NCBI GenBank assembly: GCA_964187785.1
Contig: OZ076409.1
Span: forward strand, 71,798,001-71,862,000
DNA from: Amphiscolops sp. MND2022
Lineage: Eukaryota
DNA: 64,000 nucleotides
Reading direction: 5' to 3'
Positions 1-64,000 of the stretch are shown here, piece after piece. The stretch's first letter is position 1. Each line of letters opens with the position of its first letter. The position numbers and the translations under genes are program-made. A model generated the notes under the pieces. It was not told the DNA's origin and made no database searches. It was given only the letters and a program-made list of their open reading frames with translations.

Positions 1-183
1 ACAACTATAAATTGTTTGTTTTTCACCGTAATTAGTTTACGACCCATCACCCTATGTCACGGCACCGTCATTAGTACAACGCCACATAGTGTTGCGACGT
101 GCACAGTCTGTGGGCATGCCGAGGCATGCCCTTCGACGACGTATGCCGAATACCGCGGGCCTACGCCCGCGCTCCCCGGCTAG
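1..183 (+). mobile_element. 3' end of a unit truncated by the window edge (alpha end, CGCGGGC-CTAC-GCCCGCG hairpin)
   Basis: Conserved core at 77-183 ending in CTAG. Confidence 0.6.
112..131. promoter_or_regulatory. Palindromic protein-binding site GGGCATGCCG-AGGCATGCCC, a 19/20 match to the p53-family element (representative; present in all 25 unit ends)
   Basis: Two adjacent RRRCWWGYYY decamers with zero spacer and one mismatch. Function is not demonstrated. Confidence 0.5.
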
Positions 184-1459
184 GTGGTCGTTAGCATGGG
201 ATTTTCTTTATGAGCGTAGTCCACTTTTTTTAGGCCGGGGTAGGGTCCCGGGCCGTTACCAATTTCTTACGGAGGAAAAATGTGAAAATCTGCGAGTTTA
301 AAAAATTGGCCCGTACGATTTGGCTGAAAATTGGCATACAGCATCGTCTTGGGAAACAAATGACTTTGTCCTAGTGTCATTTTGCCCAGAAAATTCAAAA
401 AGTTGGTCAAATTGAAAATTTTTTGACCGTCTAAGGCAAAAATTTGACATTTTCGCTTTTTTTGGCCAATTTTCTCAGAATTGGTTGATTTTAGTGCAGT
501 GAGTCATAAGAGGTTACAAGGTCTGCAAGTAGCCATCAATCGGCTTGCATAATCAGATTTTGTCAAAAGTGTTTAGTTTTTTCAAAAATTCACACTTTTT
601 TTTATTTCAGTGTTTTTTGATACTTTTTATTGAATTTTTTCTAAGTTTCACTAAATTTTTTAAAAATGTTTTAAAACACTTTTTTGCACGTTTTTGATGT
701 TTTTCGCTCTCCCATATAGGTTTTCGCATACGGGGAAACTGAATCTGGCAACTAAATAACTTTATTCTGCAGTTCAACTTTCGCCATTTTTAATTGTTGA
801 AAAATCACTCATTTTCAACCTAACGAGTGAAAATATCAGAATTTAAAAACATAAAGTTGAGTTTAAGGAGACTTACAGGTGGAAACAAATGCTCAGAAAC
901 AAATAGATTTCTTGTATTAGCCAAAGAAAGCCTTTAAAATTCTTTTTACTTTCTTTAAATCAAATTTCAACTATTTTTAAGAAATTTGGCAGTGAAAAAA
1001 TTTATAATTTTTAAATTAAAAAAAACTTGCTTTGTTGGTCATTTCCGTTTGTCATTATTAGCTGTGCAATTCACCAACACGTTTCAAGTTATTTTGACCC
1101 AATTTGAAAATTTTTAATACTGCATAATCTATCCGAGAGAACGAAACAGTTGTGTACATTCCATCTCCCTCCTGGGGGAGATGAGAATGTACTTGCCAAA
1201 GTCCAGGTACTACAGACCATATTTGTTTTTATGCGACACCGTCTATACTAATGCACATGAATACAAATTGTTTGTCTAAATTTTACTTCTGACTTGCCGT
1301 ATGCTGTACGTTTGGTACTGACAATACCCATCATATACATAACAAGCGTCAACGCCACATACCCTTACCAACGCCCATAGTCCGTAGGCATGCCGAGGCA
1401 TGCCTTTCGACGACGCGCGCCAAACACAAGCGCGCCCGCACTTTTGCGGTAGCAGCTAG
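184..1459 (+). mobile_element. Unit U1, 1276 bp, divergent body, B-type hairpin, putative non-autonomous element
   Basis: Bounded by GCTAGGTG junctions. Body unlike the 2 kb family. Shares the B hairpin and its flank (gtccaggtactacag..catatttgtttttatgcgac) with U23. Confidence 0.6.
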
Positions 1460-3446
1460 GTGGGCGGGGGTAATTCCCCAACAAAAATTACGGCCGGCGG
1501 GTTGGGTCCTGCCGGACGTCAAATAGCAAAGAATATCTAGTAGGAAACGGCGACACAGAATCGCGATTTTTAAATCTAACCACAATTTTTTGGACTTGGA
1601 GTGCATGCGGCCCTGAAATGCCCATACGAATCGAAGTTCCTGCTGACGTTAAGCGATTGAAATAATATATAAAAAGTTATGGCCCATTTTTCACTCACAA
1701 AGAAGGGTAAAATGAGGAAATTTTTAACAAAGTCGCTGATAACTCAAAATGTGTTAATTTTTGGACTTTGACTGTGAAACAAGCTCGGAACCTTCATTTC
1801 GTGGCTGTGGCATTGCACTGAACACAAAAGATGTAAAGTTTTTACATTTTTTGAAAATTCGAAATTTTTGAAATTTTTTTCACTACTATCAGGACCCCAT
1901 ATGTCAAAAACGCCTCAGAAAAAATTTTTTATTTGCTTTAAATTGGAAACCTTGGTATCCATGGTTTCTGTCGGATCCTACTCGCAGTCAAACACCCAAC
2001 AGTTTGCATCCAATGTGGAAATAAAAATTTTTTCGGGGTCATAAGCGTTTCACAAGGATTTCTCAACTTAGTTTCAATTTACAAATTGGTCACATTGAAC
2101 ACATTATTTTCATCGAAGCGCGTCAGATACCGCCCTAAAGCTCACGAACGGTCCTACTGGCAACGTAGCAACCATTTATAGTAATATAAAAGATTAAAAA
2201 ATTTTTTTCACCCGGTCTTCAGTCATTTTTCAGTCATTCGGAACTTAACTTAGAAAAATTTCGACCAAAATACCCATTTTTTGTCAGGTCGAAAAATCAA
2301 ATTCAGATTTTTAAGCAAAATTATTAACTCTGACGTAACTCATGGGGCCCATGATACTCAAAACAACGATTGACACTGGTATCAATGGCTCCAATAACAT
2401 ATGAGTCGCGATCGGACGTTATTTTGAGCAATACGTCTCAATTGAGGTAAAGATCTCGCAAGCCAGCGATCACTCTCAAATGTGATTTCATCAAAAATTT
2501 ACTCACTTTTGTCAATCATTATGTGCACAGAATGCGTAGGGTGCGTTTCAGCACTATAATGAGATTTTTGAATGCATCGAGTTGCTCAAGGGGTGGTACG
2601 AGACATTTTTGTCCCATATACTACTGTATTTTCCAAAATTTTTAGCCCAATATCTGGAAATACAAACTTGACAAAATACTTTCAACTACTTTATTCAAAG
2701 GTTACAATATAGATGAACACTGTGGTTGATCAGAAACTTTCATCTCTTTCGTTTTCCGAAATATTTTCCTTCGCATGTGTTATATTTGTATCACAAAAAA
2801 AAATCGAAACTGAAAAATACGCTATTTTGGTAATATAGAATCGCAATGATTGTGCCTAAAAACTCTTTAAACACTTCTAACGCGACCTTACGCACCCAAA
2901 ATGATCGAAAATGCTATTCACAATGGTGACATGTGCTCTTTCAACAATCCTGGCTGGACAAGGTTTGCATATTTTTCAAGTACCTGTCAGCTGAATCTTG
3001 TGATAGCCTTTTCAGTTGGCCTTGTGTCAACTTGGGAAGGCTATCACATCAAAAAACCATCAACAAAAATAATTTTTGTTTATTGGATCTTACAGTCGAT
3101 ACTTTTTTTCGTGATTCTATACTACCGTTAGTATATTTCATCAGGTCACCTTACGATTGCATTCAGTCTTTGATAAAAACCTATGAACTCAAAGTCACAT
3201 TTATATATTTTTTTGCCAGAAAATAACATCAAAAATATCTAAAATATATAAAATAGAGTCTTTAACATTTTTACGTTTCAAGTTTTTGCCGTTATTAGGC
3301 CAATCAACGTCCTAGAGCCACATCCTGCCACATACTGTACAACGCCACATAGTGTTGCGACGTGCACAGTCTGTGGGCATGCCGAGGCATGCCCTTCGAC
3401 GACGTATGCCGAATACCGCGGGCCTACGCCCGCGCTCCCCGGCTAG
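1460..3446 (+). mobile_element. Unit U2, 1987 bp, 2 kb family, A hairpin, alpha end
   Basis: Junction-bounded; its 5' part closely matches U18. Confidence 0.6.
3000..3047 (+). other. A-type internal hairpin GTGATAGCCTT..AGTTG(G/A)C-CTTGT-GTCAACT..AAGGCTATCAC (representative; 16 units)
   Basis: Imperfect inverted repeat; also at 4987-5034, 40690-40739, 44684-44731, 60744-60786 and 63644-63684. Confidence 0.9.
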
Positions 3447-5442
3447 GTGGGCGGGGGTAATTCCCCTTCAAAAAATTCGGCCGGCGGGTTGGGTCCTGCC
3501 GGACGTCAAATAGCAGAAAATACCTATTAGGAAACGGCGACACAAAACGGCGATTTTTAAATCTAACCACAATTTTTTGGACTTGGAGTGCATGCGGCCC
3601 TGAAATGCCCATACGAATCGAAGTTCCTGCTGACGTTAAGCGATTGAAATAATATATAAAAAGTTATGGCCCATTTTTCACTCACATAGAAGGGTAAAAT
3701 GAGGAAATTTTTAACAAAGTCGCTGATAACTCAAAATGTGTTAATTTTTGGACATTGACTGTGAAACAAGCTTGGAACCTTCATTTAGTGGCTGTGGCAT
3801 TGCACTGAACACAAAAGATGTAAAGTTTTTACATTTTTTGAAAATTCGACATTTTTGAAATTTTTTTCACTACTATCAGTACCCCATATGTCAAAAACGC
3901 TTCAGAAAAAATTTTTTATTTGCTTTAAATTGGAAACCTTGATATCCATGGTTTCTGTCGGAACCTACTCGCAGCCAAACACTCAACAGTTTGCATCCAA
4001 TGTGAAAATAAAATTTTTTTCGGGGTCATAAGCGTTTCACAAGGATTTCTCAACTTAGTATGATTTTACAAAATGGTCATTTTGAACACAATATTTTCAT
4101 CGAGGCTTGTCGGCTATAGCCTTAATGTTCTAGAACGGTCCCACTGGCAACGTAGGAACCATTTATAGTAATGGAAAGTAATAAAAAAATATTTTCACCC
4201 GGTCTTCAGTCATTTTTCAGTCATTCGGAACTTAACTTAGAAAAATTTCGACCAAAATACCCATTTTTTGTCAGGTCGAAAATTCAAATTCAGATTTTTA
4301 CGCAAAATTATTAACTCTGACGTAACCCATGGGGCCCATGATACTCAAAACAACGATTGACACTGGTATCAATGGCTCCAATAACATATGAGTCGCGATA
4401 AGACGTTATTTTGAGCAATACGTCTCAATTGAGGTAAAGATCTCGCAAGCCAGCGATCACTGTGAAATGTGATTTCATAAAAAATTTACTCATTTTTGTC
4501 AATCACTATGTGCACAGAATGCGTAGGGTGAGTTTCAGCACTATAATGAGGTTTTTGAAGGCATCGAGTTGCTCAAGGGGTGGTATGAGACATTTTTTCC
4601 CTATATACTACTGTATTTTCCAAAACTTTTACCCCATTATCTGGAGAAAGTAACTTGACAAAATACTTGCAATAACTTTATTTAAAGGTTACAATGTAGA
4701 TGAACCCTGTGGTTGATCAGAAACTCTCATCTCATTCGTTTTCCTGAATAATTCCCTTCGAATGTGTTACATTTGTAGCAGAAAAAAAAACCGAACCAAA
4801 AAAATACGCGATTTTGCTGAGATAGAATCGCAATGGTTACGCCTAAAATCTCTTTAAATACTTCTAACGCGACTTTACGGACCCAAAAAGATTGAAAATG
4901 CCATTCACAATGCTGACATGTGCTCTTTCTACGATCCTGGCTTGACAAGTTTTGCATATTATTCAAGTACCTGTTAACTGAATTTTGTGATAGCCTTTCA
5001 AGTTGGCCTTGTGTCAACTTGGGAAGGCTATCACATCAAAAAACTTTCATCAAAAATACTTTTCGTTTAAACGATATTGTATTCGATATTTATTTTCGTG
5101 ATTTTACACTACCGCTAGTACCTTCCGCCAGGTCAGCTGACGATTGCAAGCAGCCTTTGTTAAAAACCTATGAACACCAATATTTTTTTCTCATACTTTT
5201 GTTGAAGAAAAGTACAAATAAACAATAAAAATATAATTTTAACCTTTAACAACACTAATTTGTCTTTATCGTTATCAGTCCTACCACCCATACCCATCAT
5301 CATCCTATGCCATGGCCCGGTGATTAGTCCAACGCCACATAGTGTAGCGACGCCCACAGTCTGTGGGCATGCCGAGGCATGCCCTTCGACGACGTATGCC
5401 AATTTTAGCGTAGCCCGCGGTCACTACCGCGGTAGCAGCTAG
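3447..5442 (+). mobile_element. Unit U3, 1996 bp, 2 kb family, A hairpin, beta end (CCGCGG-TCACTA-CCGCGG)
   Basis: Junction-bounded; body near-identical to U7. Confidence 0.6.
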
Positions 5443-5473
5443 GTGGGCGGGGGTAATTCCCCAACAAAAAAAT

Positions 5474-5501
5474 CGGCCGGCGGGTCGGGTCCTGCCGGCC
5501 G
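5474..5501 (+). other. 5' subterminal stem-loop CGGCCGGCGGG-TCGGGT-CCTGCCGGCCG (representative)
   Basis: Found 31-50 bp after the junction in the units examined, with different stems but a similar loop. Confidence 0.85.
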
Positions 5502-6259
5502 TCCAAAATCAAAATCCTCCTAGTAGAAAACGGCATGTCAAACGAGCTATTTTTTTATTTAACCGTTAGAATTTGGGTTTAGATTGCATGCGGCCATGAA
5601 ATGGCCATACGAATGGAAGTTCTTGCTGACGTTTTGCGATTGAAACACTTTATAAAAAGTTATGGCCAATTTGTCATTCACCTAGAAGGGCGAAATGAGG
5701 AAAATTTTAACAAAGTCACTGATAACTCAAAATGTAATAATTTTTGGAGTTTGACAGTGAAACAAGCTTGGAACTGTCATTTCGTGGCTGTGGCATTGCA
5801 CTGAACACAAAAGATGTAAAGTTTTCACATTTTTCGAAAATTCGACATTTTTGATTTTTTTTTCACTACTATCAGTACACTATATGTCAAAAACGCCTCT
5901 GAAAAATATTTTTATTTGCTTAAAATTAGAAACCTTGGTATCCATGGTTTCCGTCAGTACCTACTCGCTGCCAAACGCTCAACAGTTTGCATACAATGTG
6001 AAAATATAATTTTTTTCGAGGTCATAGGTGTTTCACAAGGATTTCTCAACTTAGTATCTATTTACAAATTGGTCATTTTGAACACGTTATTTTCATCGAA
6101 GCGTGTCAGATACCACCCTAATGCTCACGAATGGGCCTACTGGCAACGTTGGAACCATTTTTAGTAATAGAAAGTATTAAAAAAATATTTTCACCCGGTC
6201 TTCAGTCATTTTTCAGACATTCGGTACTTAACTTAGAAAAATTTCGCATCAAAAACCCA

Positions 6260-7400
6260 TATTTGGTAGGGTCGAAATTTGAAATTCAGTTTTTTATGCA
6301 AAATTATTAACTCTGACGTAACCAGTGGAGCCCATGATACTCAAAAACACGATTGGGACTGGTATCAGTGGCTCCAATAACATATGAGCCGCGATAAGAC
6401 GTTATTCAGAGCAAACGCTCTAAATCGAAGTAAACATCTCTGAAGCCTGGGATCACAGTGAAATGTGATATAACCAAAAGTTTACTCTTTTTTTGTCAAT
6501 CACTATGTACACAGAGTGCTTAGGGTGAGTTTCAGGACTATAATGAGGTTTTTGAAGTAATCGCGCTGCTCAAGGGGTGGTATGAGACTATTTTTTCCCA
6601 TATACTACTACATTTCCATAAGTTTGCAGTCCATTGTCTTGGAAAGATAACTTCACAAAAACAATTTTTCTACTCTATTCAGTTATTAGAATAAAGTTGA
6701 ACACTGTGGGTGATCAGAAATGCTCAATTCTTTTGGTTTTTAAAAAAATTCCTTCGCATTCGTTACATTTGTGGAAGGAAGGTTATCAGTAGCTCCAAAA
6801 AAAAACGAAATTTAGCACGAACAGACATGCAACGATGCAAAGCAAAAACGTTTTTACAACTTCCGACGTCATTATTTTACCCAAGAATCTCGAAAATATT
6901 ATTCGCAATGCTGTCATTCGCTATATATACGATCGCGGTCAATTTACAAACATTTAGATTTCATTGTTCTGCTTGAAAACCAATTTTTGTCAGGTCGAAA
7001 TTTTAAATTTTGCCTGGGGAGCAATACCCTTCACGCTGAAGTAAACAGTGGGGCCCAAGTTACTCAAAAACAAGAAAGAGACTGCTACAATATGTCCTAA
7101 TAACATATGGACCACGATAGTACGTTTTTCACACAAAAAACTCTCATCCGAAGTAAATATGTTGAAAGCTTTTAATCACCGTGAGAAGTGATTTCATCAA
7201 AAGATAACTCTTTTTTGTCAATCACTATTTACACAGAATTTGTAAAGTTAGTTTGAGTCATGAAATGAGGCTTTACCGTAATATGGGTTGCTCAAGGTGT
7301 TATATAAGACAAAAACTTCCTCTTTTCTACTAGCTTCTTCAAATATTTCAACTCTTTGTCACAATAAGTTAATTTTCAAAATCTCTTTGAAATGTATCTT
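6260..7400 (+). repeat. Old diverged ~720 bp tandem duplication inside long units
   Basis: The motif series ggtcgaaa / g(g/a)gccca.g.tactcaaaaaca / aataacatatg / tcaatcactat / gctcaagg recurs ~723 bp later (for example ~6325 and ~7048). Confidence 0.75.
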
Positions 7401-7677
7401 TATGTTGGGGTGAAGTCTAAGAACAATAACTATGATCGAAGAATGCTAGTACTGGTGTTTGAACCATGTCCGGATGAACAAATCACAATATCATCAAAAA
7501 ATTGTTCCCTTTTTTGGTTATTTTGGCAGTACTAAAAATGTTAGCCGATAAATAATTTTTTCGATGGCACCATTGGATTCCTCTCAAAAAGTTGATTATA
7601 TGACCTGTGTAATAACCCCGTATCTTTTCAATTTAAATATATTTAAAAAGCCAACTATTTTGACCAAAATCCTAAAA

Positions 7678-8945
7678 ATCATACCATTTCCTAAAAATTT
7701 TCAAATGCACCCCATTTGACGTATAAGATAAGCACAGAAAACTATCATATACCGATCAACTCTACTCCTATTGTAGATTATTAGAATTTTGTTTAGAATG
7801 AATTTTGATGAATAATAAAAAAATTTTGAACCCTCCAAAAATGGGCCAAATTTACACGAAAAAATTGACCTTAAAATACCAAAATGTTAAAAAATCATCA
7901 AAACCCAGGCTTCTTGGGGTTCTATCAACTCCGCGTGGTCCACAGAGTATGCTAAAACAGGTTTTACCCGTTTTTGAGCAATATGTGAAAAAGCCGACAT
8001 TTTTGGGAAAGAAAAACATACCATTTCCTAAAAAAATTCAAATGCACGTCATTTGCCGTATTAGAATAGCACAGAAAACTATCACATACCAATCAACTCT
8101 ACTTTCATTGCAGATGAACAGAATTTTGTTTAGAATAAATTTTACCGGATAATAAAAAAATTTGAATCCTTCAAAATTGGGCCAAAAATACACGAAAAAA
8201 TGGACCTTAAAAATTTAAAATGTCAAAAAATCATCAAAACAACTGCTTCTTGGGGTTCTATCAACTCCACGAGGTCCACAGAGTATGCTAAAACAGGTTT
8301 TACCCGTTTTTGAGCAATATGTGAAAAAGCCGACATTTTTGGGAAAGAAAAACATACCATTTCCTAAAAAAATTCAAATGCACGCCATTTGCCGTATGAA
8401 AATAGCACAGAAAACTATCACATACCAATCAACTCTACTTTCATTGCAGATGAACAGAATTTTGTTTAGAATAAACTTTACCGGATAATAAAAAAATTTG
8501 ATTCCTTCTAAAATGGGCCAAAATTACACGAAAAAATGGACCTTAAAATTTTAAAATGTCAAAAAATCATCAAAACCACGGCTTCTTGGGGTTCTATCAA
8601 CTCCACGTGGTCCACAGAGTATGCTTAACCCGGTTTTACCCATCTTTGATCAAAATGTGAAAATACCGACATTTTTGGAAAAGAAAAACAGGCCATTTTC
8701 TAATAAATTTCAAATGCACGCCATTTGCTGTATGAGAATAACACAGAAAGCTGTCACATACCGATCAACTCTACTTCCATTGTAGATTATCAGAAGTTTG
8801 TTTAGAATAAATTTTGAAGGATAATAAAAAAATTTGAAACCATCAAAAATGGGTCAAATTTACACGAAAAAATTGACCTTAAAATATCAAAATGTCAAAA
8901 AATCATCAAAACCACAATTTCTTGGCGTTCTATCAACTCCATATG
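7678..8945 (+). repeat. ~336 bp internal tandem repeat, ~3.8 copies (U4)
   Basis: Anchor ttgg(g/c)gttctatcaactcc at ~7914, 8250, 8587 and 8922. Confidence 0.9.
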
Positions 8946-9230
8946 ATACCAAACCAGGTACTGCCAATCGTTTGAGTTATAATAAAAAAACGTCTTTTTT
9001 GGCAAGAATTCCATACCATAAATAATAATCATGTTCCATATAAGAAACGAATCATTTCAGATATATACCCTGTTCATTTTTTTAATATTACCGATTATTA
9101 ATTTAATAGATGTTTTGAATGTGAGCTTCCTAAAAGGTTCAGGTGTGATGATACGTAAATAGAACCTTAGTTTCATCGAAATCTCAATTGAATATGTCCA
9201 ATCTTAACCATCAGATAACAAGAAACACTT

Positions 9231-9273
9231 AAGTACATTCCATCTCCCCATCGGGGGAGATGAGAATGTACTT
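9231..9273 (+). other. B-type internal hairpin AAGTACATTC-CATCTCCCC-loop-GGGGAGATG-A-GAATGTACTT (representative; 8 units)
   Basis: Inverted repeat with a single bulged A; also at 1154-1192, 13994-14035 and 62292-62334. Confidence 0.9.
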
Positions 9274-10205
9274 TCGAGAAGCCAAATACGTCCAACATTC
9301 AAACTTTTGTAACTTTGTATGTAACTCCTGAAACGAAGAAGGAATAAAATTGTTTCTGGTACATACATGAGTCTTTACTTCAGCTTCTATTTCTGCTGAA
9401 CAAAACCATTCGACTCTTTTGCCGGACTTAAGATCGATTGTATTACCCAGTGAACAAAGGCATGATTGAAAACGTTTACTACTTTGTTCATAATTTTCCG
9501 GCCTTCCGAAATGATGAAACGTCCACATAACTAAGATAGCAAGTGAATGACTGCGAAATGCACCTTATTAGATGAGGTAAATAACGTGTAAAACTCTCCT
9601 TTATCCTAACATGAGGTTGAGTAATGATCATTTGAGAATAGTTTGATATGTGAATACAATAGTATAAAACAAGTACATTTTATATGAATAACGCCGTGGA
9701 AAGCGTTCAGAAAGGACAGTAGGCTTGTTTGGAATATGTATGTGTGGTGTCCCTTGGTGGCGTTCGCTTAGTGTATATGTCGAGGGGTATTCGAGTTGTT
9801 ATGATAGAATTTACACACAAGTCTTTTGTTTTTTGGTTTTTTTAAAATGTCGTTAAGTACCTGCATTCTATCCCCTTCTCAGAGATGACGTGAAGTTACG
9901 TTTGCTAAATAATTGTCATCGAAAGATCACACTCCCGACGAAATTAACTATCTTAACACGTGTTTAGAATTTTAAATGAACAACCGTATAAGATTTTTTT
10001 ATTTCATTGAGTTTGATGAAGTCTTTTGTTCTTCTCACTACTATTTCAACCAATACACATATCCGTTACCATATCACATGTCTCCATTAGTACAACGCCA
10101 CATAGCGTTCCGACGCCCACAGTCTGTGGGCATGCCGAGGCATGCCCTTCGACGACGTATGGCAAATGGAGCCATGCCCGCCGTCTTTACGGCGGTAGCG
10201 GCTAG

Positions 10206-51110: not shown

Positions 51111-54100
51111 GTGGGCGGGGGTAATTCCCCAACTAAAAAATCGGCCGGCGGGTAGGGTCCTGCCGGCCGTCCAAAATCAAAAATATACTAGTAGAAAACG
51201 GCCGGTCAAACGAGCTATTTTTTTATTTAACCGTTAGAATTTGGGTTTAGATTGCATGCGGCCATGAAATGGCCATACGAATCGAAGTTCCTGCTGACGT
51301 TTTGCGATTGAAACACTTTATAAAAAGTTATGGCCAATTTGTCAGTCACCTAGAAGGGCAAAATGAGGAAAATTTTAACAAAGTCGCTGATAACTCAAAA
51401 TGTGTTATTTTTTGGACTTTGACTGTGAAACAAGCTTGGAACCTTCATTTCGTGGCTGTGGCATTGCACTGAACGCAAAAGATGTAAAGTTTTTACATTT
51501 TTTGAAAATTTGACATTTTTGAAATTTTTTTCACTACTATCAGTACCATATATGTCAAAAACACCTCAGAAAAAAATTTTTATTTGCTTTAACTTGGAAA
51601 CCTTGGTATCCATGGTTTCTGTCGGAACCTACTCGCAACCAAACAACCAACAGTTTGCATCCAATGTGAAAATAAAAAATTTTTCTGGGTCATAAGCGTT
51701 TCACAAGGATTTCTCAACTTAGTATTAATTTACAAAATGGTCATTTTGAACACAATATTTTCATCGAGGCTTGTCGGCTATAGCCTTAATGTTCTAGAAC
51801 GGTCCCACTGGCAACGTAGGAACCATTTATAGTAATAGAAAGTTTAAAAAATATATTTTCACCCTGTCTTCAGTCATTTTTCAGTCATTCGGAACTTAAC
51901 TTAGAAAAATTTCGACCAAAATACCCAATTTTTGACAGATCGAAAATTCAAATTCAACTTTTTAAGCAAAATTATTAACTCTGACGTAACCAGTGGGGCT
52001 CATGATACTCAAAAACACGATTGGGACTGGTACCAATGGCTCCAATATCATATGAGCCGCGATAAGACGTTATTTTGAGCAATACGTCTCAATTGAGGGA
52101 AACATCTCGCAAGCCTGGGATCACAGTTAAAAGTGATTTCGTCAAAAATTTACTCTTTTTCGTCAATCACTATGTACACAGAGTGCTTAGGGTGAGTTTC
52201 AGCACTATTATGCGGTTTTTGAAGGAATCGGTCTGCTCAAGGGGTGGTATGAGACATTTTTTTTGCATGTAGTACTATATTTCTCAAAACTTTTAGCCCA
52301 TTATCTCGAAAAGCTCACTTCGCAAATTACTTTCAGTTACTCTATTCGAAGCTTAGAATATATATGAACACTGTGGTTGATCAGAAACTCTTGACTATTT
52401 TGTTTTTGGAAAAAAACTGCCTTGCATGTGTTACATTAGTGGCAGGAAAAATACCAGTAGCTCCAAAAATCACAATTTTGGACGGACAGACCTGCAATGA
52501 TGCAAAGCAAAAACGTTTCAACAACTTCTGGCGCCACTTTTTTACCCAAGAGGTTCGAAATTACTATTAACAATGCTGACATTCGCTATAAATAAGATCG
52601 AGGTCAATTTACTAACACTTAGGTTATACATTTATATCTGAGAAACCATTCTTTGTCAGGTCGCAATTTTAAATTTAGTTTGGGAAGCAATACTTTTCAC
52701 TCTGAAGCAAACCGTTGGGCCCAAATTACTCAAAAACTACAAAAAGACTGTCACCATATGCCCTAATAGCATATGAGATTCGACCGTATGTTTTTAACAC
52801 AAAAACTCTCATCCGAAGTAAACATGTTGAAGGCCTTGAATCACCGTGAGAAATGATTTCATCAAAAAATATTCCTTTTTCGTCAATCTTTATTTACACA
52901 GAACACGTTGTGTCATTTTCAGCCGTGAAATGAGCTTCTACCGTAATATGGGTTGCTCAAGGTGTTGTATAAGACAAAAACTTCCTCTTTTCTACTATCT
53001 TCTTCAAATATTTCAACCCTTTGTCACAAGAAGTTAATATTCAAAATCTCTTTGAAATGTTTCTTTAGGTTGGGGTGAAGTGTTAGAACAATAATTATGA
53101 TCGAAGAATGATAGTATTGGTGTTTGGACCATGTCCGGATGAACAAATTGCAAAATCATGAAAAATTTCTTACCATTTTTGGTCATTTTGTCAGTACTAA
53201 AAATGTTAGCTGAAAAAGAATTTTTTTGATGGCACCATTGGATTCCTCTCAAAAAGTTAGCTATATGAACTGTGTAATAACCCCGTATCTTTTCAATTTA
53301 AATAATTTTAAAAAGCAAACTTTTTTGACTAAAATCCTAAAAATCATACCATTTCCTAAAAAATTTCAAATGCCCCCCATTTGACGTATAAGAATAGCAC
53401 AGAAAACTATCACATACCGATCGACTCTACTTCCATTGTAGATTACCAGAATTTTGTTTAGAACAATTTTTGACGGATGCAAAAAAAAATTTAAACCCTC
53501 CAAAAAAGGGCCAAAATTACACGAAAAAATTGACCTTAAAATTTTAAAATGTCGAAAAATCATCAAAACCACAGCTTCTTGGGGTTCTATCAACTCCACG
53601 TGGTCCACAGAGTATGTTAAAACAAGTTTTACCCGTATTTGTGCAATATGTGAAAAAGCCGACTTTTTTGGGAATGAGAAACATACCATTTCCTAAAAAA
53701 TTTCAAACGCACCCCATTTGACGTATAAGAATAGCACAGAAAACTATCACATACCGATCGACTCTACTTCCATTGTAGGTTACCAGAATCTTGTTTAGAA
53801 CAATTGTTGACGGATGCAAAAAAAAATTAAACCCTCCAAAAATGGGCCAAAATTACACGAAAAAATTGACCTTAAATTTTTAAAATGTCAAAAAATCATC
53901 AAAACCACAGCTTCTTGGGGTTCTATCAACTCCACGTGGTCCACAGAGTTTGCTAAAACAGGTTTTACCTGTTTCTGAGCTATATGTGAAAAAACCGACA
54001 TTTTGGGGAAGAAAAACATACCATTTCCTAAAAAATTTCAAATGCACGCCATTTGCCGTATGAGAATAGCACAGAAAACTATCACATACCGATCAACTCT

Positions 54101-56542
54101 ACTTCTATTGTAGATTATCAGATTTTTGTTTAGAACAAATTTTTATGGATATAAAAAATTTTTAAACCCTCCAAAAATGAGCCAAAATAACACGAAAAAA
54201 TGGACCCTAAATTTTTAAAATGTCAAAAAATTATCCAAACCACAGCTTCTTGGGGTTCTATCAGCTCCACGTGGTCCACAGAGTATGCTAAAACAGGTTT
54301 TGCCCGTTTTTGAGCAGTATATGAAAAAGCCGACATTTTTGGGGAAGAAAAACATACCATTTCCTAAAAAAATTCAAATGCACGTCATTTGCCGTATTAG
54401 AATAGCACAGAAAACTATCACATACCAATCAACTCTACTTTCATTGCAGATGAACAGAATTTTGTTTAGAATAAATTTTACCGGATAATAAAAAAATTTG
54501 AATCCTTCAAAAATGGGCCAAAAATACACGAAAAAATGGACCTTAAAAAATTTAAAATGTCAAAAAATCATCAAAACAACAGCTTCTTGGGGTTCTATCA
54601 ACTCCCCGAGGTCCACAGAGTATGCTAAAACAGGTTTTACCCGTTTTTGAGCAATATGTGAAAAAGCCGACATTTTTGGGAAAGAAAAACATACCATTTC
54701 CTAAAAAAATTCAAATGCACGCCATTTGCCGTATGAAAATAGCACAGAAAACTATCACATACCAATCAACTCTACTTTCATTGCAGATGAACAGAATTTT
54801 GTTTAGAATAAACTTTACCGGATAATAAAAAAATTTGATTCCTTCTAAAATGGGCCAAAATTACACGAAAAAATGGACCTTAAAATTTTAAAATGTCAAA
54901 AAATCATCAAAACCACGGCTTCTTGGGGTTCTATCAACTCCACGTGGTCCACAGAGTATGCTTAACCCGGTTTTACCCATCTTTGAGCAAAATGTGAAAA
55001 TACCGACATTTTTGGAAAAGAAAAACATGCCATTTTCTAATAAATTTCAAATGCACGCCATTTGCTGTATGAGAATTACACAGAAAGCTGTCACATACCG
55101 ATCAACTCTACTTCCATTGTAGATTATCAGAAGTTTGTTTAGAATAAATTTTGAAGGATAATAAAAAAATTTGAATCCATCAAAAATGGGCCAAAATTAC
55201 ACGAAAAAATTGACCTTAAAATATCAAAATGTCAAAAAATCATCAAAACCACAATTTCTTGGCGTTCTATCAACTCCATATGATACCAAACCAGGTACTG
55301 CCAATCGTTTGAGTTATAATAAAAAAACGTCTTTTTTGGCAAGAATTCCATACCATAAATAATAATCATGTTCCATATAAGAAGCGAATCATTTCAGATA
55401 TATACCCTGTTCATTTTTTTAATATTACCGATTATTAATTTAAAAGATGTTTTGAATGTGAGCTTCCTAAAAGGTTCAGGTGTGATGATACGTAAATAGA
55501 ACCTTAGTTTCATCGAAATCTCAATTGAATATGTCCAATCTTAACCATCAGATAACAAGAAACACTTAAGTACATTCCATCTCCCCATCGGGGGAGATGA
55601 GAATGTACTTTCGAGAAGCCAAATACGTCCAACATTCAAACTTTTGTAACTTTGTATGTAACTCCTGAAACGAAGAAGGAATAAAATTGTTTCTGGTACA
55701 TACATGAGTCTTTACTTCAGCTTCTATTTCTGCTGAACAAAACCATTCGACTCTTTTGCCGGAGTTAAGATCGATTGTATTACCCAGTGAACAAAGGCAT
55801 GACTGAAAACGTTTACTACTTTGTTCATAATTTTCCGGCCTTCCGAAATGATGAAACGTCCACATAACTAAGATAGCAAGTGAATGACTGTGAAATGCAC
55901 CTTATTAGATGAGGTAAATAACGTGTAAAACTCTCCTTTATCCTAACATGAGGTTGAGTAATGATCATTTGAGAATAGTTTGATATGTGAATACAATAGT
56001 ATAAAACAAGTACATTTTATATGAATAACGCCGTGGAAAGCGTTCAGAAAGGACATTAGGCTTGTTTGGAACATGTATGTGTGGTGTCCCTTGGTGGCGT
56101 TCGCTTAGTGTATATGTCGAGGGGTATTCGAGTTGTTATGATAGAATTTACACACAAGTCTTTTGTTTTTTGGTTTTTTTAAAATGTCGTTAAGTACCTG
56201 CATTCTATCCCCTTCTCAGAGATGACGTGAAGTTACGTTTGCTAAATAAATGTCATCGAAAGATCACACTCCCGACGAAATTAACTATCTTAACACGTGT
56301 TTAGAATTTTAAATAAACAACCGTATAAGATTTTTATATTTCATTGAGTTTGATGAAGTCTTTTGTTCTTCTCACTACTATTTCAACCAATACACATATC
56401 CGTTACCATATCACATGTCTCCATTAGTACAACGCCACATAGCGTTCCGACGCCCACAGTCTGTGGGCATGCCGAGGCATGCCCTTCGACGACGTATGGC
56501 AAATGGAGCCATGCCCGCCGTCTTTACGGCGGTAGCGGCTAG
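51111..56542 (+). mobile_element. Unit U20, 5432 bp, chimeric long unit (L2-like 5' half, L1 3' half, two extra 336 bp repeats)
   Basis: 5432-4760 = 672 = 2 x 336; sequence from ~54350 onward matches L1. Confidence 0.6.
53343..55280 (+). repeat. ~336 bp internal tandem repeat, ~5.8 copies (U20)
   Basis: Anchor cat(a/g)ccatt at ~53345, 53682, 54017, 54353, 54690 and 55026. Confidence 0.9.
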
Positions 56543-58526
56543 GTGGGCGGGGGTAATTCCCCTTCAAAAAATTCGGCCGGCGGGTTGGGTCCTGCCGGAC
56601 GTCAAATAGTGTGAAACATCCAGTAGGAAACGGCGACATTTATCAGCGATTTTAAAATTGAACCGTTAGAATTTGGACTTGGAGTGCATGCGGGCCCAAA
56701 ATGCCCATACGAATCGAAGTTCCTGCTGACGTTAAGCGATAAAAACACTTTATAAAAAGTTATGGCCCATTTTACGTTCACTTAGAGAGGTAAAATGAGG
56801 AAAATTTTAACAAAGTTGCTGATAACTCAAAATACATTAATTTTTGGACTTTGACTGTGAAACAAGCTTGGAACCTTCATTTCGTGGCTGTGGCATTGCA
56901 CTGAACACAAAAGATGTAAAGTTTTCACATTTTTTGAAAATTCGACATTTTTGAATTTTTTTCACTACTATCAGTACACTATATGTCAAAAACACCTCAG
57001 AAAAAAATTTTTATTTGCTTAAATTTAGAAACCTCGGTATCCATGGTTTCCGTCAGTACCTACTCGCAGCCAAACACTCAACAAATTGCATCCAATGTGA
57101 AAATAAAATTTTTTTCGGGGTCATAAGCGTTTCACAAGGATTTCTCAACTTAGTATTAATTTACAAAATGGTCATTTTGAACACAATATTTTCATCGAGG
57201 CTTGTCGGCTATAGCCTTAATGTTCTAGAACGGTCCCACTGGCAACGTAGGAACCATTTATAGTAATAGAAAGTTTTAAAAAAATTTTTTCATCCGGTCT
57301 TCAGTCATTTTTCAGTCATTCGGAACTTAACTTAGAAAAATTTCGACCAAAATACCCATTTTTTGTCAGGTCGAAAATTCAAATTCAGATTTTTAAGCAA
57401 AATTATTAACTCTGACGTAACCCATGGGGCCCATGATACTCAAAACAACAATTGACACTGGTATCAATGGCTCCAATAACATATGAGTCGCGATAAGACG
57501 TTATTTTGAGCAATACGTCTCAATTGAGGTAAAGATCTCGCAAGCCAGCGATCACTGTGAAATGTGATTTCATCAAAAATTTACTCATTTTTGTCAATCA
57601 CTATGTGCACAGAATGCGTAGGGTGCGTTTCAGCACTATAATGAGGTATTTGAAAGCATCGAGTTGCTCAAGGGGTGGTATGAGACCTTTTTGTCCCATA
57701 TACTTCTGTATTTTCCAAAATTAATTGGCCCAATATCTGGAAATACAAACATGACAAAATACTTTCAACTACTTTATTCAAAGGTTACAATATAGATGAA
57801 CACTGTGGTTGATCAGAAACTTTCATCTCTTTCGTTTTCCGAAATATTTTCCTTCGCATGTGTTACATTTGTAGCAGAAAAAAAATCGATACAGAAAAAT
57901 ACGCTATTTTGCTAATATAGAATCGCAATGATTGTGCCTAAAAACTCTTTAAACACTTCTAACGCGACCTTACGCACCCAAAAAGATCGAAAAAGCTATT
58001 CACAATGGTGACTTGTGCTCTTTCAACGATCCTGACTGAACAATTTTCGCAAATTATTCAAGTACCTGTTAACTGAATCTCGTGATAGCCTTTTAAGTTG
58101 GCCTTGTGTCAACTTGGGAAGGCTATCACATCAAAAAATTTTCAACAAAAATACTTTTTGTTTATTGAAAATGACAGTCGATATATAATTTCGTGATTCT
58201 ATGCTACCGTTAGTACCTTCCATTAAGTCACCTGACGATTGCATTCAGTCTTTGATAAATACCTATGAACTCGAAGTCATATTTATAAATTTTTTGCTAA
58301 AAATAAACATCAAAATTATCCAAATTTATTAAAATTGAGTCTTTACTGTTTTTGTTTTTCTTTTTCTACTGTTATTAGGCCCATCAACTTCCTACAGCCA
58401 CGCTCTCTGTCATACTGTACAACGCCACATAGTGTTGCGACGTGCACGGTCTGTGGGCATGCCGAGGCATGCCCTTCGACGACGTATGCCGAATACCGCG
58501 GGCCTACGCCCGCGCTCCCCGGCTAG
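56543..58526 (+). mobile_element. Unit U21, 1984 bp, 2 kb family, alpha end
   Basis: Near-identical to U10. Confidence 0.6.
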
Positions 58527-61324
58527 GTGGCGGGGGGCTGTCCCCAATAGAATATAGTGAGGTAGGGTAGGGTTCCCTACCGAACATTCAGTACTGAAAG
58601 ACTCTTGTAGTATGAAAATTTTTCGATGTTTTGAGACCGATTTCGGATTCCACCCGTCAGAAGTTTATGATTTTTTGGCCCCCACCCAGATTTTGGGCAC
58701 TGATCGCCCCCCCACCAGGTTCCATACCCGTGGTTTCGTTGTGACGGGTACACGAGCGACCGTTAGGGGTCAATCAGGGGGTAAAATTTATAAAAGTGTG
58801 AATAACTTTTCCCCCCGTCGTTTTAGCAGGTCCGGTCACTAGTAAAGGTTTGTTGGGCATCATGCAGTGGGTACGGGGGGCCAAACAAAAATTTTCTATC
58901 ATGCACCGTTACGGACTTGGCCCCCCGCCCAAACCGCTATTTTACCGGAAATTGCACTTTTTGAACGGGAAGGAGTCGTCTGAGCGCGGAGTCGTTTGGT
59001 AATGTTTTGTAGAGCATCTGAAGACGTGATGGGGGACATGTAGTTTGCCGACCCCAGTTTACCCCTCGGACGGGAAATGACCGTTATGTTAGTTTTAAAA
59101 TTGCCCCCCGTCAACTTTAACCGCTATTTCTGGTGTGAAGGCGTCGGAACAGCGTGTCGGGTGCTATATATCAAAAGTAGCTTTAAACAAGGACCTATCA
59201 GAAACATGTGGTTTGGGACCCTTTGAACGGACCCGTTAGCCGGAAATAGGGTGACCGCCTCCTTTTTTTGGTGTTAAAACCGTAAAACGGGCATTAAAGT
59301 GAAATTATCTCGTGAACGCGTGGAGCAATCGTGTCCATCATTCCTACAAGGTTTCATACCCATGACATGGTGTCTTCAGGGGGGCAAACAGATCAGCGCT
59401 ATCTATCACCGTTACGGACTTTGCCCCCCAGCCTAACCGCTATATTACCGGAAACTGCCCTTTTTGACCGGGAAGGAGTCGTCTGAGAGTGGAGTCGTTA
59501 AGTAATGTTTTGTAGAGCATCTAGAGACGTGTTGGGGGACATGTAGTTTGCCGACCCCTGTTTACCCCTCGGACGGGAAATGACCGTTATGTTAGTTTTA
59601 AAATTGCCCCCCGTCAACTTTAACCGCTATTTCTGGTGTGAAGGAGTCGGAATAGCGTGTCGGGTGCTACATATCAACAGTAGCTTTAAACAAGGACCTA
59701 TCAGAAACATGTGGTTTGGGACCCTTGGAACGGACCCGTTAGCCGGAAATAGGGTGACCGCCCCCTTTTTCTGCGGTTAAAATTGTAAAACGGGCATTGA
59801 AGTGGAATTATCTTGGAAACGCGTGGAGCTATAGTGTCCTTCACTACTACAAGGTTTCATACTCAAGATACGGTGCCTTCAGGGGGGAAAACAGATTACC
59901 GCTATATATCACCGTTACGGACTTGGCCCCCCAGCCTAACCGCTATGTTACCGGAAATGTCATTTTTTGAGCCAAAAGGGTTAGTCCCAGCGTGGGAACG
60001 TCAGGTAACTTTATGTAGAACTCAATGAGACGAGTTGGGGGATATGGTTTCAGTCACCCCCCGTTGACCCGTTAGACCGGAAACGACCGTTATGTAGTGA
60101 AAAATGTAATTTTTATACTTTTTGAAGGCCATTTAGGGCAGGAAGTATCGGTAATATGTCTTTGGACAGTATACAATGAAAGTTTTGGTGTGAAACAAGC
60201 AATCTGAAATATCCGTTATTATGATTCGGAAGTCACACTAACAGCGAAAATGACCGTTATGTAGTGAAAATTTTTTTCACATTTTTTTTGCTTTCGATAG
60301 GTCCTTCAAGCCAAGAAGTAGCTGTATTAGGTCTTTGGCCACTTTATGATGATTGTGGTGTTGTGAGATGACCGTACGAACTTGACCTTTATAATGCCCC
60401 TGAAGTTGCTGCGGCACGAGAAATTTCAGAAAGTTTGTCTTTTCTGTGTTTTGTTGGAATAAACATTTAATTTCATTAAACCAATGTGCATTCAGGGTGT
60501 TTAGAAAGCTTCAAGAAAAGAATTTAATAGGAAACATGGCGGTGAGAAATAACAAATTGCCACGTAAATCCAACCCCCGTTGGGGAATAAATGTAATAAA
60601 TTGTTTTGGAAGTGCCAATCGACGTGTATTTGCGGATCATAGCCACGGTATTGTCTATTCGTGTTTCTTTTTGAAGACTTTGAACATTTTCACTTTATCA
60701 GCTTGAGGTTTTAACTCTATATGCTTAATAACCGTTACAATATGATAGCCCTCAAGTTGACCTTGTGTCAACTTGAAAGGGCTATCCTTTCACAACTGCG
60801 CAGCAACAGTGTGATTGAGTGATTTAGTTATTATCCAAGGCCAATTTGAACTTCAACAAGATTTTAACCACAATATTTAAAACTATTCATATGATTCTTT
60901 CAAAAGGGTAAATATTTACCTAATATTTGACAAAAAACTCCAACCTTTAATTTGTGGACCGAATAGTAGGAAAACCATGTTTCTTAACGTTGTTGGATGA
61001 AATTCAAAATGATGCTTTTAAAAGAATAACAATTCTTGACACTATAAATTTTTTCTATTTTCCAATAAACTATTTTTCCAAAAGTCTATTTTTCCAATAA
61101 ACATTGTTGATTGATGCCCATTCATAGTGACTGGAAAGTTTTACCAACTGTGGTGTTTTTTTTAATCAGAGGTGAAACCGCTCCCTACCGTCGCATAATG
61201 TAATTCAAGCCGACGCCCACATGCCAACATCAACGCCCACCGTCCGTAGGCATGCCGAGGCATGCCTTTCGACGACGTATGCCAAATCACGCCCCTGCGA
61301 GGTCACTAAAGCGGTAGCGGCTAG
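58527..61324 (+). mobile_element. Unit U22, 2798 bp, unrelated and more GC-rich body with 503 bp internal repeats, A hairpin
   Basis: Junction-bounded; shares only the terminal motifs and the A hairpin with the main families. Confidence 0.6.
58840..60100 (+). repeat. 503 bp internal tandem repeat, ~2.4 copies (U22)
   Basis: Anchor accgttacggactt at 58905, 59408 and 59911. Confidence 0.9.
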
Positions 61325-62606
61325 GTGCCGGTGTTTTTCACGACAAAGAAAGTTGCGCGCTTTGGGTAGGGTCCCGGCGCGCTTTTGGGGTTCATTTTAA
61401 CAACCTGATCTCCCGTTGCACGTATGTCCGATTTTCCAAACTATCCTACCAATTTTGCTGAAATTTTGCATGTGGGTCCCTATGGACATTCTAAGAACAA
61501 ATCCCTACTGGCGTTTTGCCCGGAAAATTTTTTTTGTTGACTTATTGACAATTTTAGGTGCCGAAAATGACGTTTTTTCAAAAAAAAATTTTTTAAGAGC
61601 CCATATCTCGCTCCCAGGTGCCCGGAGCGGGTCGCATGTGGACGTTGATATTGCTAGGCACTTCGTAAGGAGTCTGTAGACAAATTTCGGTTCAGATTGG
61701 ATGAAAATTGATTGAGTAATAGCCGCAAATTGGACGCATTTTGTCAAATTTTTTCGAAACCCCAGTCTATCTCTGCCGTTTTTTGCCCAGATTTTTTTCT
61801 AGACCCTCTCCTAAAGGCCTCCCCTGGCCGGATTACCTCCCAGCAAAACCATTTGGCCCTAAATACGAAGTTTCAGCGTTCTAGCATTCTCGGGCGAAAA
61901 GTTGTGGGACTTAGAAAAATTTTTTTGAAAACGCAAAATGTGTTAAGTCAACTTCAGGCCTCCCAACGTCAAGGAACTTCCACACAACTAGTATTGCAAG
62001 TGAATGCATGTGGAAAGTACTCGGATAGACGAGAAAAATGAGCTATTATAAATCTCTGTAGCTTAACCTGACGTTGACTTATGACAATTTTAGTGTGAGC
62101 TTGCTATGTGAGAAAAAAATTCAAAATTGGAAATCGAAGCTAAGTCTCATCCAAAACTCATCGGAACACGTTCAATCCATCCCAGAGCGGTTTAATTCCA
62201 GCTATATAATGCAGCAACACTATTCAAGACCATTTGATCCACTTACATTAGTTTTGACACCGTATTATTCATCCGAGAGCACAAAACAGTTGAGTACATT
62301 CCATCTCCCTTTCGGGGGAGATGAGAATGTACTCGCTAAAGTCCAGGTACTACAGCCCATATTTGTTTTTATGCGACGCTTTTATGGTTTGTATGCTAGT
62401 GCGTACACGTATTAATCTTTTAACATATTTTTTGTCGTCTGCAGTTTGCTTTTGACTTGACATAAACTGAACGTTTTGTCCTTAAAACATACACATTACT
62501 AACGTCAACGCCCCATCCTTGCATCAACGCCCACCGTCCGTGGGCATGCCGAGGCATGCCCTTCGACGACGTATACCAAGATATACATAAGCGCGGTAGC
62601 CGCTAG
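61325..62606 (+). mobile_element. Unit U23, 1282 bp, distinct body, B hairpin
   Basis: Junction-bounded; B hairpin region homologous to U1. Confidence 0.6.
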
Positions 62607-63993
62607 GTGGTTGGGGCGGTCCCCAGAACGCACAAGGAGGCGCGGGGAGGGTCCTGCGCCGACGTAGAATAATTTCATATAATACTAGTATCCTACATGG
62701 GTGTTTTAGAAGCGATTTTGGAATCTAACCGTAGGATTTGGATAATTTTTTGCATGCGGCCACAACTCGAAATTCTAAGAACTTTTTCCTACTGTCATTT
62801 TCCCCGCAAATTGTTTTTTGTTGACTTATGGCCGAAAAACCGGAAATAACGTCCTTTTTAGACGTTATATCCGAAGTGTTGTCATAACTTTTTTCCAGGG
62901 CATGCTAGCGTTCTCCTTCACTTTTACACTTAGTTGCAGCATCTCGAAATACAACTGGTGGAAAATTTTGGTTGCATTCGGATCACCCCCCACCGAGATA
63001 GAAGGGTTCCCCCCTCCAGATTTACCCCCCAAATTTGCAAAAAAGCCAATTTTGAGCATGAAGCCGAGGATTTAGCGTACCCGCACCCTTCTGATGTTTT
63101 GTTGTACGTATTGGGGTCAATCTGACGACATGTGTGGTTTTCACCCCCAACCCCCCCTGGGACCGGAAATGACACTTTTTTGTGTTTTTTGGCAGAATTT
63201 AGCCTTTTTCATTATTAGACAGTCGTTTTAGGGACTCATAGCAGGATATCGAAATTGAAATACAACCTGATCACAACCCAGTGACAACATGTTGGCCACT
63301 TGGATGTACCATCATGACCGGAAGTGGGGTCAACCCCCCTTTTTGTGACCGCTTTTTGACCTTGTGCACCAAAATGCCAACAACTTGAGGCCTAATGACG
63401 CATTCAAATCTGTACAAAGATAGAGTGTTAGACAACTGAAGTCCCGGAAGATCTTTAGCATATACCGGAAGTTACCCCCATGACCGGAAGTTACCCAATG
63501 TGACCGGAAATGGTCCAAAAATTAATGTAAAGTTGAATTTTTCACTATTTCAAGACCACTTCATTGAACATTTTCAATCCCAAAACTAGCGTACTGGCTT
63601 GTTTTGCTGAATTTATGGAAATTGATGAGCTCTATCACCCCCTATAGCCTTTGAAGTTGACCTTGCGTCAACTTTGGAGGCTATCGATACTGAAAATGAA
63701 CAAGAAAGTACATTGTTGCTCTCGGTTTTTTCCCGTTGTTTTTCCTCAAACTTTCTTGAGACATATACATGGCCGTTAGTTGAAATCAATATTTAGCCCA
63801 TGTTATAGCTGGAGCAGTGAAGCGTTACACAGACTAGTGTGGTTTTGAAATTACATTACTTAAATTAACAACTGACCGTCTTAGACAACTCCACACATTC
63901 ATACCAACGCCCACCGTCTGTGGGCATGCCGAGGCATGCCCTTCGACGACGTATGACGAATCCACTCCAACGACACCCGCAGTCCTCAGCTAG
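62607..63993 (+). mobile_element. Unit U24, 1387 bp, distinct body rich in ACCGGAA, A hairpin
   Basis: Junction-bounded; conserved core at ~63886-63993. Confidence 0.6.
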
Positions 63994-64000
63994 GTGGTCG

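Follow-up and report, generated by a model that had tools for sequence, protein, structure and literature searches.

The 64-kb window analysed here (the whole stretch of 64,000 nucleotides, contig OZ076409.1 of the 1.07 Gb Amphiscolops sp. MND2022 assembly; G000:C1:71.80-71.86 Mb) is filled with units of several kinds set head to tail, which raises the question of what these units are and how such different sequences came to lie end against end. In this work, we show that they are almost certainly non-autonomous Helitron-like elements, and that the window lies within a multi-megabase single-orientation array of Helitron-like transposons, a span sampled at eight places. The structure of the junctions further suggests that the arrays were probably built by insertion at the element's own junction.

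The octamer GCTAGGTG occurs 25 times on the + strand of the window and never on the - strand, against 0.35 occurrences per strand expected from base composition. As an earlier note on this DNA had stated, the window holds 24 complete units of 1,276-5,432 bp, all on one strand and directly adjoining without spacer. Fourteen of about 2 kb and six related long ones form one 2-kb/long family (20/24), and four are of other types. The same note had counted at least five body types sharing only terminal motifs; the types do differ, but the bodies of U01 and U23 have 381 bp in common at 73% identity. Nor is the octamer the only string common to all junctions, since the 18-bp palindrome GGCATGCCGAGGCATGCC, which lies upstream of the junction, and TTCGACGACG are each found alongside it in 25/25 junction neighbourhoods. 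No ORF (open reading frame) of the window exceeds 123 aa, the Rfam scan returned 0 families and the tRNA scan none. The features of the window are the following:

1..183, + strand: 3' end (RTS) of the unit preceding the window, ending CTAG
184..1459, + strand: U01, non-autonomous unit of 1,276 bp, the one sharing 381 bp with U23
1387..1404, + strand: example of the subterminal palindrome GGCATGCCGAGGCATGCC
1455..1462, + strand: example junction, with the boundary CTAG|GTG between 1459 and 1460
1460..1519, + strand: example 5' end (LTS), with GTG, a short hairpin and a hairpin with the conserved GGG(T/G)(A/T)GGGNCC loop region
1460..3446, + strand: U02, 2-kb family
3447..5442, + strand: U03, 2-kb family
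5443..10205, + strand: U04, long family
7675..8941, + strand: 336-bp internal tandem repeat in U04, 3.8 copies; also in U05, U06, U09 and U11
10206..14952, + strand: U05, long family, matching the 5' region and 3' end of the autonomous element at G000:C2:103.49-103.51 Mb
14953..19712, + strand: U06, long family
19713..21707, + strand: U07, 2-kb family, 98.6% to U03
21708..23692, + strand: U08, 2-kb family
23693..28442, + strand: U09, long family, 99.6% to U05
28443..30425, + strand: U10, 2-kb family, 99.6% to U21
30426..35185, + strand: U11, long family, 99.5% to U06
35186..51110, + strand: U12-U19, eight 2-kb-family units
39160-41152 and 43140-45146, + strand: U14 and U16, 2-kb subtypes with 98-99% copies in other arrays
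51111..56542, + strand: U20, long family, 5,432 bp
53340..55278, + strand: 336-bp tandem repeat in U20, 5.8 copies
56543..58526, + strand: U21, 2-kb family
58527..61324, + strand: U22, 2,798 bp, its first 1,567 bp matching the 5' end of the autonomous element at G000:C1:70.548-70.569 Mb
61325..62606, + strand: U23, 1,282 bp, with 369 bp matching the 5' region of the autonomous element at G000:C1:71.017-71.029 Mb
62607..63993, + strand: U24, 1,387 bp
63994..64000, + strand: first bases (GTG) of the following unit; the array extends on both sides

The ends of the elements follow a simple rule, GTG...CT(A/G)G, rarely CTTG. Among 113 complete units the 3' end is CTAG in 98, CTGG in 14 and CTTG in 1, and in the fetched loci CTNG precedes 154 of 157 element starts (CTAG 127, CTGG 21, CTTG 5, CTCG 1), 117 of these 154 having been found without using the upstream bases and 37 re-anchored. 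The octamer is therefore not invariant beyond the window: the base preceding CTAG varies, and the genome-wide rule is CTNG|GTG. Empty paralogous sites, which the earlier note had proposed to look for together with solo copies, were found for four dispersed insertions (6/6, 3/3, 3/3 and 2/2 paralogues); all four insertions start with GTG, with no target-site duplication and no loss, and the one at GTCC|TT fixes the element exactly as GTG...CTAG. The left flank of 11 complete dispersed insertions was CTNG in ten (CTTG 5, CTCG 2, CTAG 2, CTGG 1) and GTCC in the other, CTNG having a background frequency of 11.6 per kb, while the right flank was NT in 10/11 and T stood at +2 in 29 of 31 array-free 3' ends. 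These flanks give the target as CTNG|(A/G/T)T, or CTNG|DT, a pattern to which the joint of the element itself, CTAG|GT, conforms.

The target also bears on the enzyme. The earlier note had considered a tyrosine recombinase (Crypton/DIRS or integron-like) that would integrate circles at GCTAGGTG as an 8-bp crossover core, and the precise head-to-tail order and short constant joint do resemble cassette arrays. However, the dispersed insertions carry no duplicated core, their left and right tetranucleotides being different (CTTG left and CTAG right; GTCC left and CTAG right), long units with these ends encode a Rep-helicase, and no such recombinase was found among the array ORFs scanned, no genome-wide recombinase search having been made. 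We regard this alternative as very improbable. A minus-strand reading, with CTAG as the 3' end on the other strand, was ruled out because ORFs and dispersed copies place CTRG at the 3' end of + strand units. The longest exact terminal inverted match in the 113 units is at most 9 nt, the same as in shuffled sequences; terminal direct repeats are absent from them, and the terminal 3' hairpin differs between unit types.

The long unit with the same ends and a Rep/helicase that the earlier note had suggested looking for was found in another array, where a 15-kb gap between palindromic cores is filled by a 13.7-kb unit. This unit opens with GTG and the same 5' hairpin, closes with CTAG and, between its junctions, encodes a 2,377-aa protein with Pfam matches to Helitron_like_N (PF14214), PIF1 (PF05970) and GIY-YIG. 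Autonomous relatives of this kind encode an HUH/Y2 Rep plus Pif1 helicase of 2,200-2,550 aa, usually with an SLX1-like GIY-YIG domain, together with an RPA-like oligonucleotide/oligosaccharide-binding (OB) protein, in agreement with the proposal that an HUH rolling-circle enzyme acts in trans on non-autonomous elements. When the Rep region was searched against the genome, 135 matches of 31-100% identity came back, 65 of them in open frames of at least 2,100 aa; 35 fall within C1:70.5-76.5 Mb, every one on the + strand. All ten autonomous elements with fetched 3' ends finish in CTAG or CTGG directly against GTG, eight of the ten with the palindromic core of the window, and junction-type 5' starts were seen in 5/9 upstream stretches, plus two more elsewhere. 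Within the arrays, autonomous elements are interleaved with the short units.

The HUH and YxxxY motifs are present in 10/10 ORFs checked, and the predicted Rep structure (mean predicted local distance difference test score, pLDDT, of 58) has the Helitron transposase 7LCC as its sole match under E 0.001. SLX1 is the closest to the C-terminal domain among solved structures (profile E 4e-8), and the GIY-YIG catalytic positions are lost in at least three of ten families here; the domain is degenerate in L056, L066 and L068 with the ORFs intact, and at L060:8988-9599 it forms a separate downstream ORF. Longer transposases are encoded at L054:1620-9254 and L066:1680-9320, the latter with an OTU-like N-terminal match that also occurs in some relatives elsewhere. 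The second conserved ORF has a predicted tandem OB-fold like that of RPA or CST (template modelling score, TM, ~0.2), its nearest matches including CST and POT1-type proteins. The loop of the conserved hairpin, GGGTAGGG or GGGTTGGG (at window:1490-1519 and in further 5' ends), is similar to the G-rich repeats of telomeres, and one may speculate that the accessory OB protein binds this telomere-like loop. The 13.7-kb element also carries, on the - strand at L012:6362-7027, an ORF without a Pfam match that is SGNH/GDSL hydrolase-like by language-model features (0.95; 142/256 shared). Identical Rep regions occur on different contigs, and the intact transposases appear to have been recently copied.

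Three window bodies can be traced to such elements. U05 matches one autonomous element at 85% over 2,523 bp and at the 3' end, U22 another at 90.9% over 1,567 bp, and U23 a third at 90.5% over 369 bp, and on these matches the window bodies appear to be deletion derivatives of autonomous families, not the unrelated cargo of the earlier note. No autonomous parent of U24 was found among the elements fetched, and U01 has distant autonomous matches only. Long-family units are characterized by the internal 336-bp tandem repeat; they also hold what looks like an older duplication with a ~720-bp period (e.g. U04 positions 811-1145 and 1533-1870, 68-71% alike), and both repeats are present in the 5' region of the autonomous parent.

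How, then, did the units come to be stacked? The 29-bp palindromic core has 4,733 exact copies genome-wide and the reversed control 0, the copies being found singly as well as in arrays of widely varying size. For one common 3' end, the next bases are GTG(G/C) in 1,544 copies and a non-G base in 31, so that ~97% of its copies adjoin another element, a figure that covers one 3' subtype, omits ends with G but not TG(G/C) next, and uses a non-G pattern that drops about a fifth of cases. The genome, extrapolated from 477 kb, contains ~5.6 million CTNG|DT sites and ~98,000 chance CTRG|GTG sites, and a short target alone therefore cannot account for the stacking.

The composition of the arrays argues for units that arrive singly at existing junctions. 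The 113 complete units belong to 23 families, and adjacent pairs at least 97% alike number 1/78 (98%); in the window, where seven unit pairs are near-identical (>=97%), matching neighbours are 0/14. Across 110 junctions a single doublet is duplicated (0.59 expected), the pair in question lying on either side of an assembly gap at L011. Where one side of a junction is near-identical and the other unrelated, identity extends at most 4 nt past the junction in 10/13 pairs and at most 5 nt before it in 36/54. In these comparisons units exchange their neighbours singly, and the breakpoints fall at CTRG|GTG. Finally, of 38 CTNG|DT sites lying on the same strand inside the 24 window units not one is interrupted, compared with 25 junctions that have been used. 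Because of these neighbour, doublet, breakpoint and uninterrupted-site counts, we favour single units arriving at existing junctions, and the earlier idea of unit-level insertion at a landing pad, with unrelated neighbours and breakpoints near CTAG|GTG, seems largely right.

The same counts weigh on growth in place, in which insertion at CTNG|DT would be random, arrays would expand by rolling-circle concatemers, unequal exchange or gene conversion, and selection would purge dispersed copies. Homogeneous tandem arrays of plant Helitrons have been described (Xiong et al. 2016, as cited in PMC11934779), chimaeric units do exist here, and the single 98% pair among the 78 is of the kind expected. 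But concatemers predict identical neighbours, unequal exchange predicts duplicated doublets beyond the one beside the gap, the exchange points between unrelated bodies are confined to ~5 nt, less than homologous recombination needs, and the genome tolerates many dispersed copies of long terminal repeat (LTR) retrotransposons, long interspersed nuclear elements, hAT elements and canonical Helitrons; growth in place is thus quite improbable. Satellite DNA, as a homogenized monomer or higher-order repeat, was considered and rejected, adjacent units of the window being at most 93% identical and duplicated doublets showing no excess.

A closer competitor keeps the elements and the enzyme and explains the preference by proximity: circles would re-insert near the donor or in a shared nuclear compartment, or be joined off the chromosome and integrated in mixed blocks, the junction being merely the nearest good target. 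The local clustering of families beside autonomous relatives and a dispersed mini-array of three different units at L089 speak in its favour. On the other hand, 19 of the 41 pairs of near-identical units are split between arrays or separated by more than 1 Mb, near-identical units on different arrays or contigs each being at a junction, and all 38 internal same-strand sites of the window units are uninterrupted; we consider the proximity model rather unlikely.

Mis-joined repeats would be a more trivial explanation, and some arrays do stop at gaps or contig ends (L011, L143). Units differ by 1-25%, however, so that reads can place them, the junctions recur across many arrays, and empty sites match exactly. 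In four other public runs of low depth, the X2 junction joins a U02-like start to a different upstream tail, and the X1 and X4 contigs start at GCTAGGTG. Because contigs from other runs carry the same junction, an assembly artefact has very little probability.

Several observations weigh against insertion at the junction, or against parts of the account given here, in addition to the restricted scope of the ~97% figure. Families cluster locally, six units of one family being consecutive beside an autonomous relative, and this clustering fits local re-insertion as well as junction recognition. U13 is chimaeric, its body resembling U15 and its tail U03/U07 of the 2-kb family, and chimaeras of this kind show that recombination acts too. 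Exceptions to the target rule exist: GTCC|TT at one confirmed insertion, and TTCT and TTTA ahead of two element starts. Among the 26 dispersed 3' ends fetched, 11 came with a recognizable 5' end inside the fetched stretch; many copies away from the arrays are therefore either truncated, of greater length, or old. Almost every one of the 49 LTS types places its 5' hairpin at a common position, yet z falls below -2 relative to shuffles in 16/49 (median z -1.35), folding energy alone giving weak support. Lastly, a pattern search finds no Walker A in the probable parent of U05.

By analogy with Helitron and IS91 chemistry, the GTG end would be the origin and CTRG the terminator. The transposase would nick after CTNG at the GTG end, one strand would be peeled as far as the CTRG end, and a circle closed with a CTAG|GTG joint would be inserted at a CTNG|DT site. 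The element's own joint would be a valid target flanked by terminal hairpins that bind the transposase, and existing junctions would be preferred over bare sites. Each insertion would yield two junction sites, and families with common terminal signals would pile up together in a single array. A role in trimming or resolving branched intermediates may, speculatively, fall to the SLX1-like domain, which is degenerate in some of the families here. At L029:6350-6390 (G000:C1:71.888 Mb) a unit ends in CTAG, and before the next GTG come the final 32 bases of another, different 3' end. Such a doubled terminator would be expected if an element inserted into a terminator and read-through followed. The direction in which arrays grow is not readable from the structure of their ends.

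Active homing to the junction is what we infer from the structure of these end products. Taken as a whole, it seems somewhat more plausible than otherwise that we are dealing with an undescribed deep Helitron-like branch (a Rep-Pif1-SLX1-type GIY-YIG transposase with an RPA-like protein), widespread in public assemblies, that combines IS91-like tetranucleotide chemistry with active homing to its own 3'/5' junction; more than 20 short and many divergent autonomous families would share this landing pad, and the cassette-like arrays of megabase length that they build would be a safe harbour of their own making, in which the order of units records the history of transposition. Integron cassettes, which a tyrosine recombinase inserts at one attI site, and the HeT-A/TART/TAHRE retroelements at Drosophila chromosome ends likewise line up different mobile units head to tail in an ordered, uniformly oriented stack. 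Here, in contrast, every junction would be a potential HUH target.

The family had not been recognized in the earlier note. Its superfamily is a known one, the Helitron-like elements, but it falls outside the two described groups, HLE1 and HLE2. A tree of 52 rows and 422 columns resolved three groups, 30 GIY-clade, 17 HLE1-type and 5 HLE2-type rows, the first two at 100/100; its labels come from Pfam features, the HLE2 rows are all from this genome, there is no outgroup, and a long-branch warning applies. A first FastTree tree of 54 rows, in which 17 of 71 rows were dropped at the motif anchor, gave the same three groups, the 52-row tree having used profile anchors; in a Rep-only tree HLE1 is not one split. 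On these alignments the transposases form a clade separate from the reference sequences for HLE1 and HLE2, probably a further lineage of Helitron-like elements.

A profile search returned 383 representatives at E 1e-30 or better. Pfam GIY-YIG matches 17 of 18 sampled relatives, and a GIY profile matches 94 of the 99 extending past the helicase, a partly circular count as the profile was built from 20 of them. The HLE2 markers DUF6570 and AP endonuclease were found in 0/18 relatives and in none of the array ORFs scanned, while six other elements of this genome carry one or the other. Relatives elsewhere number in the hundreds; one is named, XP_039257388.1 of the tunicate Styela clava, and the other 29 looked up are on assembly contigs of 7-36 kb. 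Two members of the relative cluster are labelled 'bacterium', probably through mis-binning. Scans of viral and metagenome contigs confirmed no locus for the DNA around relatives in other organisms, and the search of public sequencing runs listed no RNA run.

HELIANO recognizes HLE1, with TC...CTRR ends and A|T insertion, and HLE2, with inverted repeats, T|T insertion and DUF6570; it leaves at least four HLE clusters unclassified, in 19 genomes including sponges, polychaetes and springtails, and in the available portion of the paper GIY-YIG is mentioned once, as a capture in a Sphagnum HLE2 family (PMC11417382). The present elements could be one of these unclassified clusters. Canonical Helitrons (HLE1; Helraiser, 7LCC) share with them an HUH Y2 Rep fused to Pif1, a CTRR-type 3' end, the lack of target-site duplication, an RPA-like accessory gene and many non-autonomous derivatives (PMC11417382). 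Unlike HLE1, the elements described here start with GTG, not TC (4/4 empty-site insertions), insert at CTNG|DT, not A|T (A on the left in 0/11 dispersed insertions), carry a C-terminal GIY-YIG, belong to a separate clade and form mixed-family arrays, not concatemers of one element.

HLE2 elements (Helentron, Helitron2, FoHeli) resemble ours in their large transposases, optional OTU domain and 5' hairpins, and occasional self-insertion and tandems have been reported for FoHeli (PMC5148889). The differences are the clade, the lack of terminal inverted repeats, a target that is not T|T (left base G in 10/11, C in 1) and the lack of HLE2 marker domains. Third-clade Helitrons of Paramecium (10.1101/2025.11.06.686955 = PMC13085455) likewise stand outside HLE1/HLE2 and have very long ORFs, a 3' tetranucleotide (CCAA) that matches their own insertion target, strict orientation and long specialized compartments. 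They insert in, and are separated by, telomeric repeats, whereas here insertion is at CTNG|DT in other repeats or at own junctions. GIY is unmentioned in the available text of PMC13085455, one ORF of its supplement 3 stops ~80 codons past the helicase without GIY-YIG, and four codon spellings of the RPPE motif of the present clade are absent from that supplement as available. The Paramecium clade, not among the rows of the tree, seems to lack GIY-YIG.

As for chemistry, IS91 has reported targets CTTG, GTTC, GTCC and CTCG, which resemble its other end (PMC13181058) and overlap the CTTG, CTCG, CTAG, CTGG and GTCC seen here. IS91, IS801 and IS1294 also share the target tetranucleotide beside one end with a look-alike at the other, the absence of duplication and the subterminal palindromes, but IS91 has no helicase or GIY-YIG and, in the available text, is not described as forming mixed arrays (PMC13181058); the present Rep matches Helitron models, not those of IS91. 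The likeness is one of mechanism, not of membership. Replitrons, HUH transposons of eukaryotes, likewise insert on the 3' side of a short target, but they have a Y1 Rep, no helicase and terminal direct repeats, against a Y2 Rep, a helicase and no such repeats here (10.1101/2022.12.15.520654). Our literature search, which covered sources other than subscription papers, Repbase and Dfam, returned no paper on Rep-Pif1-GIY-YIG elements with GTG...CTRG ends or on junction-stacked mixed arrays, and the arrangement is not described in the available portions of PMC5148889, PMC11934779, PMC13404089, PMC6431247, PMC8788227, 10.1101/2022.12.15.520654 and 10.64898/2026.09.17.752431.

The array containing the window begins at ~C1:70.455 Mb, after a host CTAG, and same-strand Rep genes reach 76.46 Mb on C1; all eight places sampled in this span are array (8/8). 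Arrays show no single pattern of position, being mid-contig on C1, at the contig end on C2, where telomeric repeats are absent, and near the start on C3. At C2:102.0-103.9 Mb and C3:2.4-3.9 Mb, the lower part has its Rep genes mainly on the - strand and the upper part on +, which may reflect two arrays back to back, diverging. The reversal of orientation across a 200-N gap at L011:5200-7700 (G000:C1:23.977-23.980 Mb) is probably a scaffolding inversion. Unit families without the palindromic core (~1.06, 2.1 and 4.3-4.9 kb) use the same junction in arrays mixed with core-bearing units, and canonical HLE1-type and DUF6570-bearing HLE2-type elements (L100-L124) occur in the same genome, outside the arrays seen. 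These and other features lie at the following loci:

L008, L016-L018, L025, L073, L125 and L143: core-less unit families
L005:7379-9277: 633-aa hAT transposase ORF
L006: LTR retrotransposon interrupted by a 1,256-bp unit
L024:1235-3604: unassigned 790-aa ORF with a weak UvrD_C_2 match

The usual rules for Helitron-like ends (TC...CTRR, inverted repeats) would miss this probable lineage, which gives a eukaryotic rolling-circle transposon with a target sequence like that of bacterial IS91. It also offers a route to long mixed tandem arrays without satellite amplification or nested disruption, since insertion at a seam spares both neighbours. With intact, apparently recently copied transposases and exactly mapped ends, the choice of target is directly testable, and with it the question of whether a short terminal sequence could be used again and again as a landing pad in single-strand integration.

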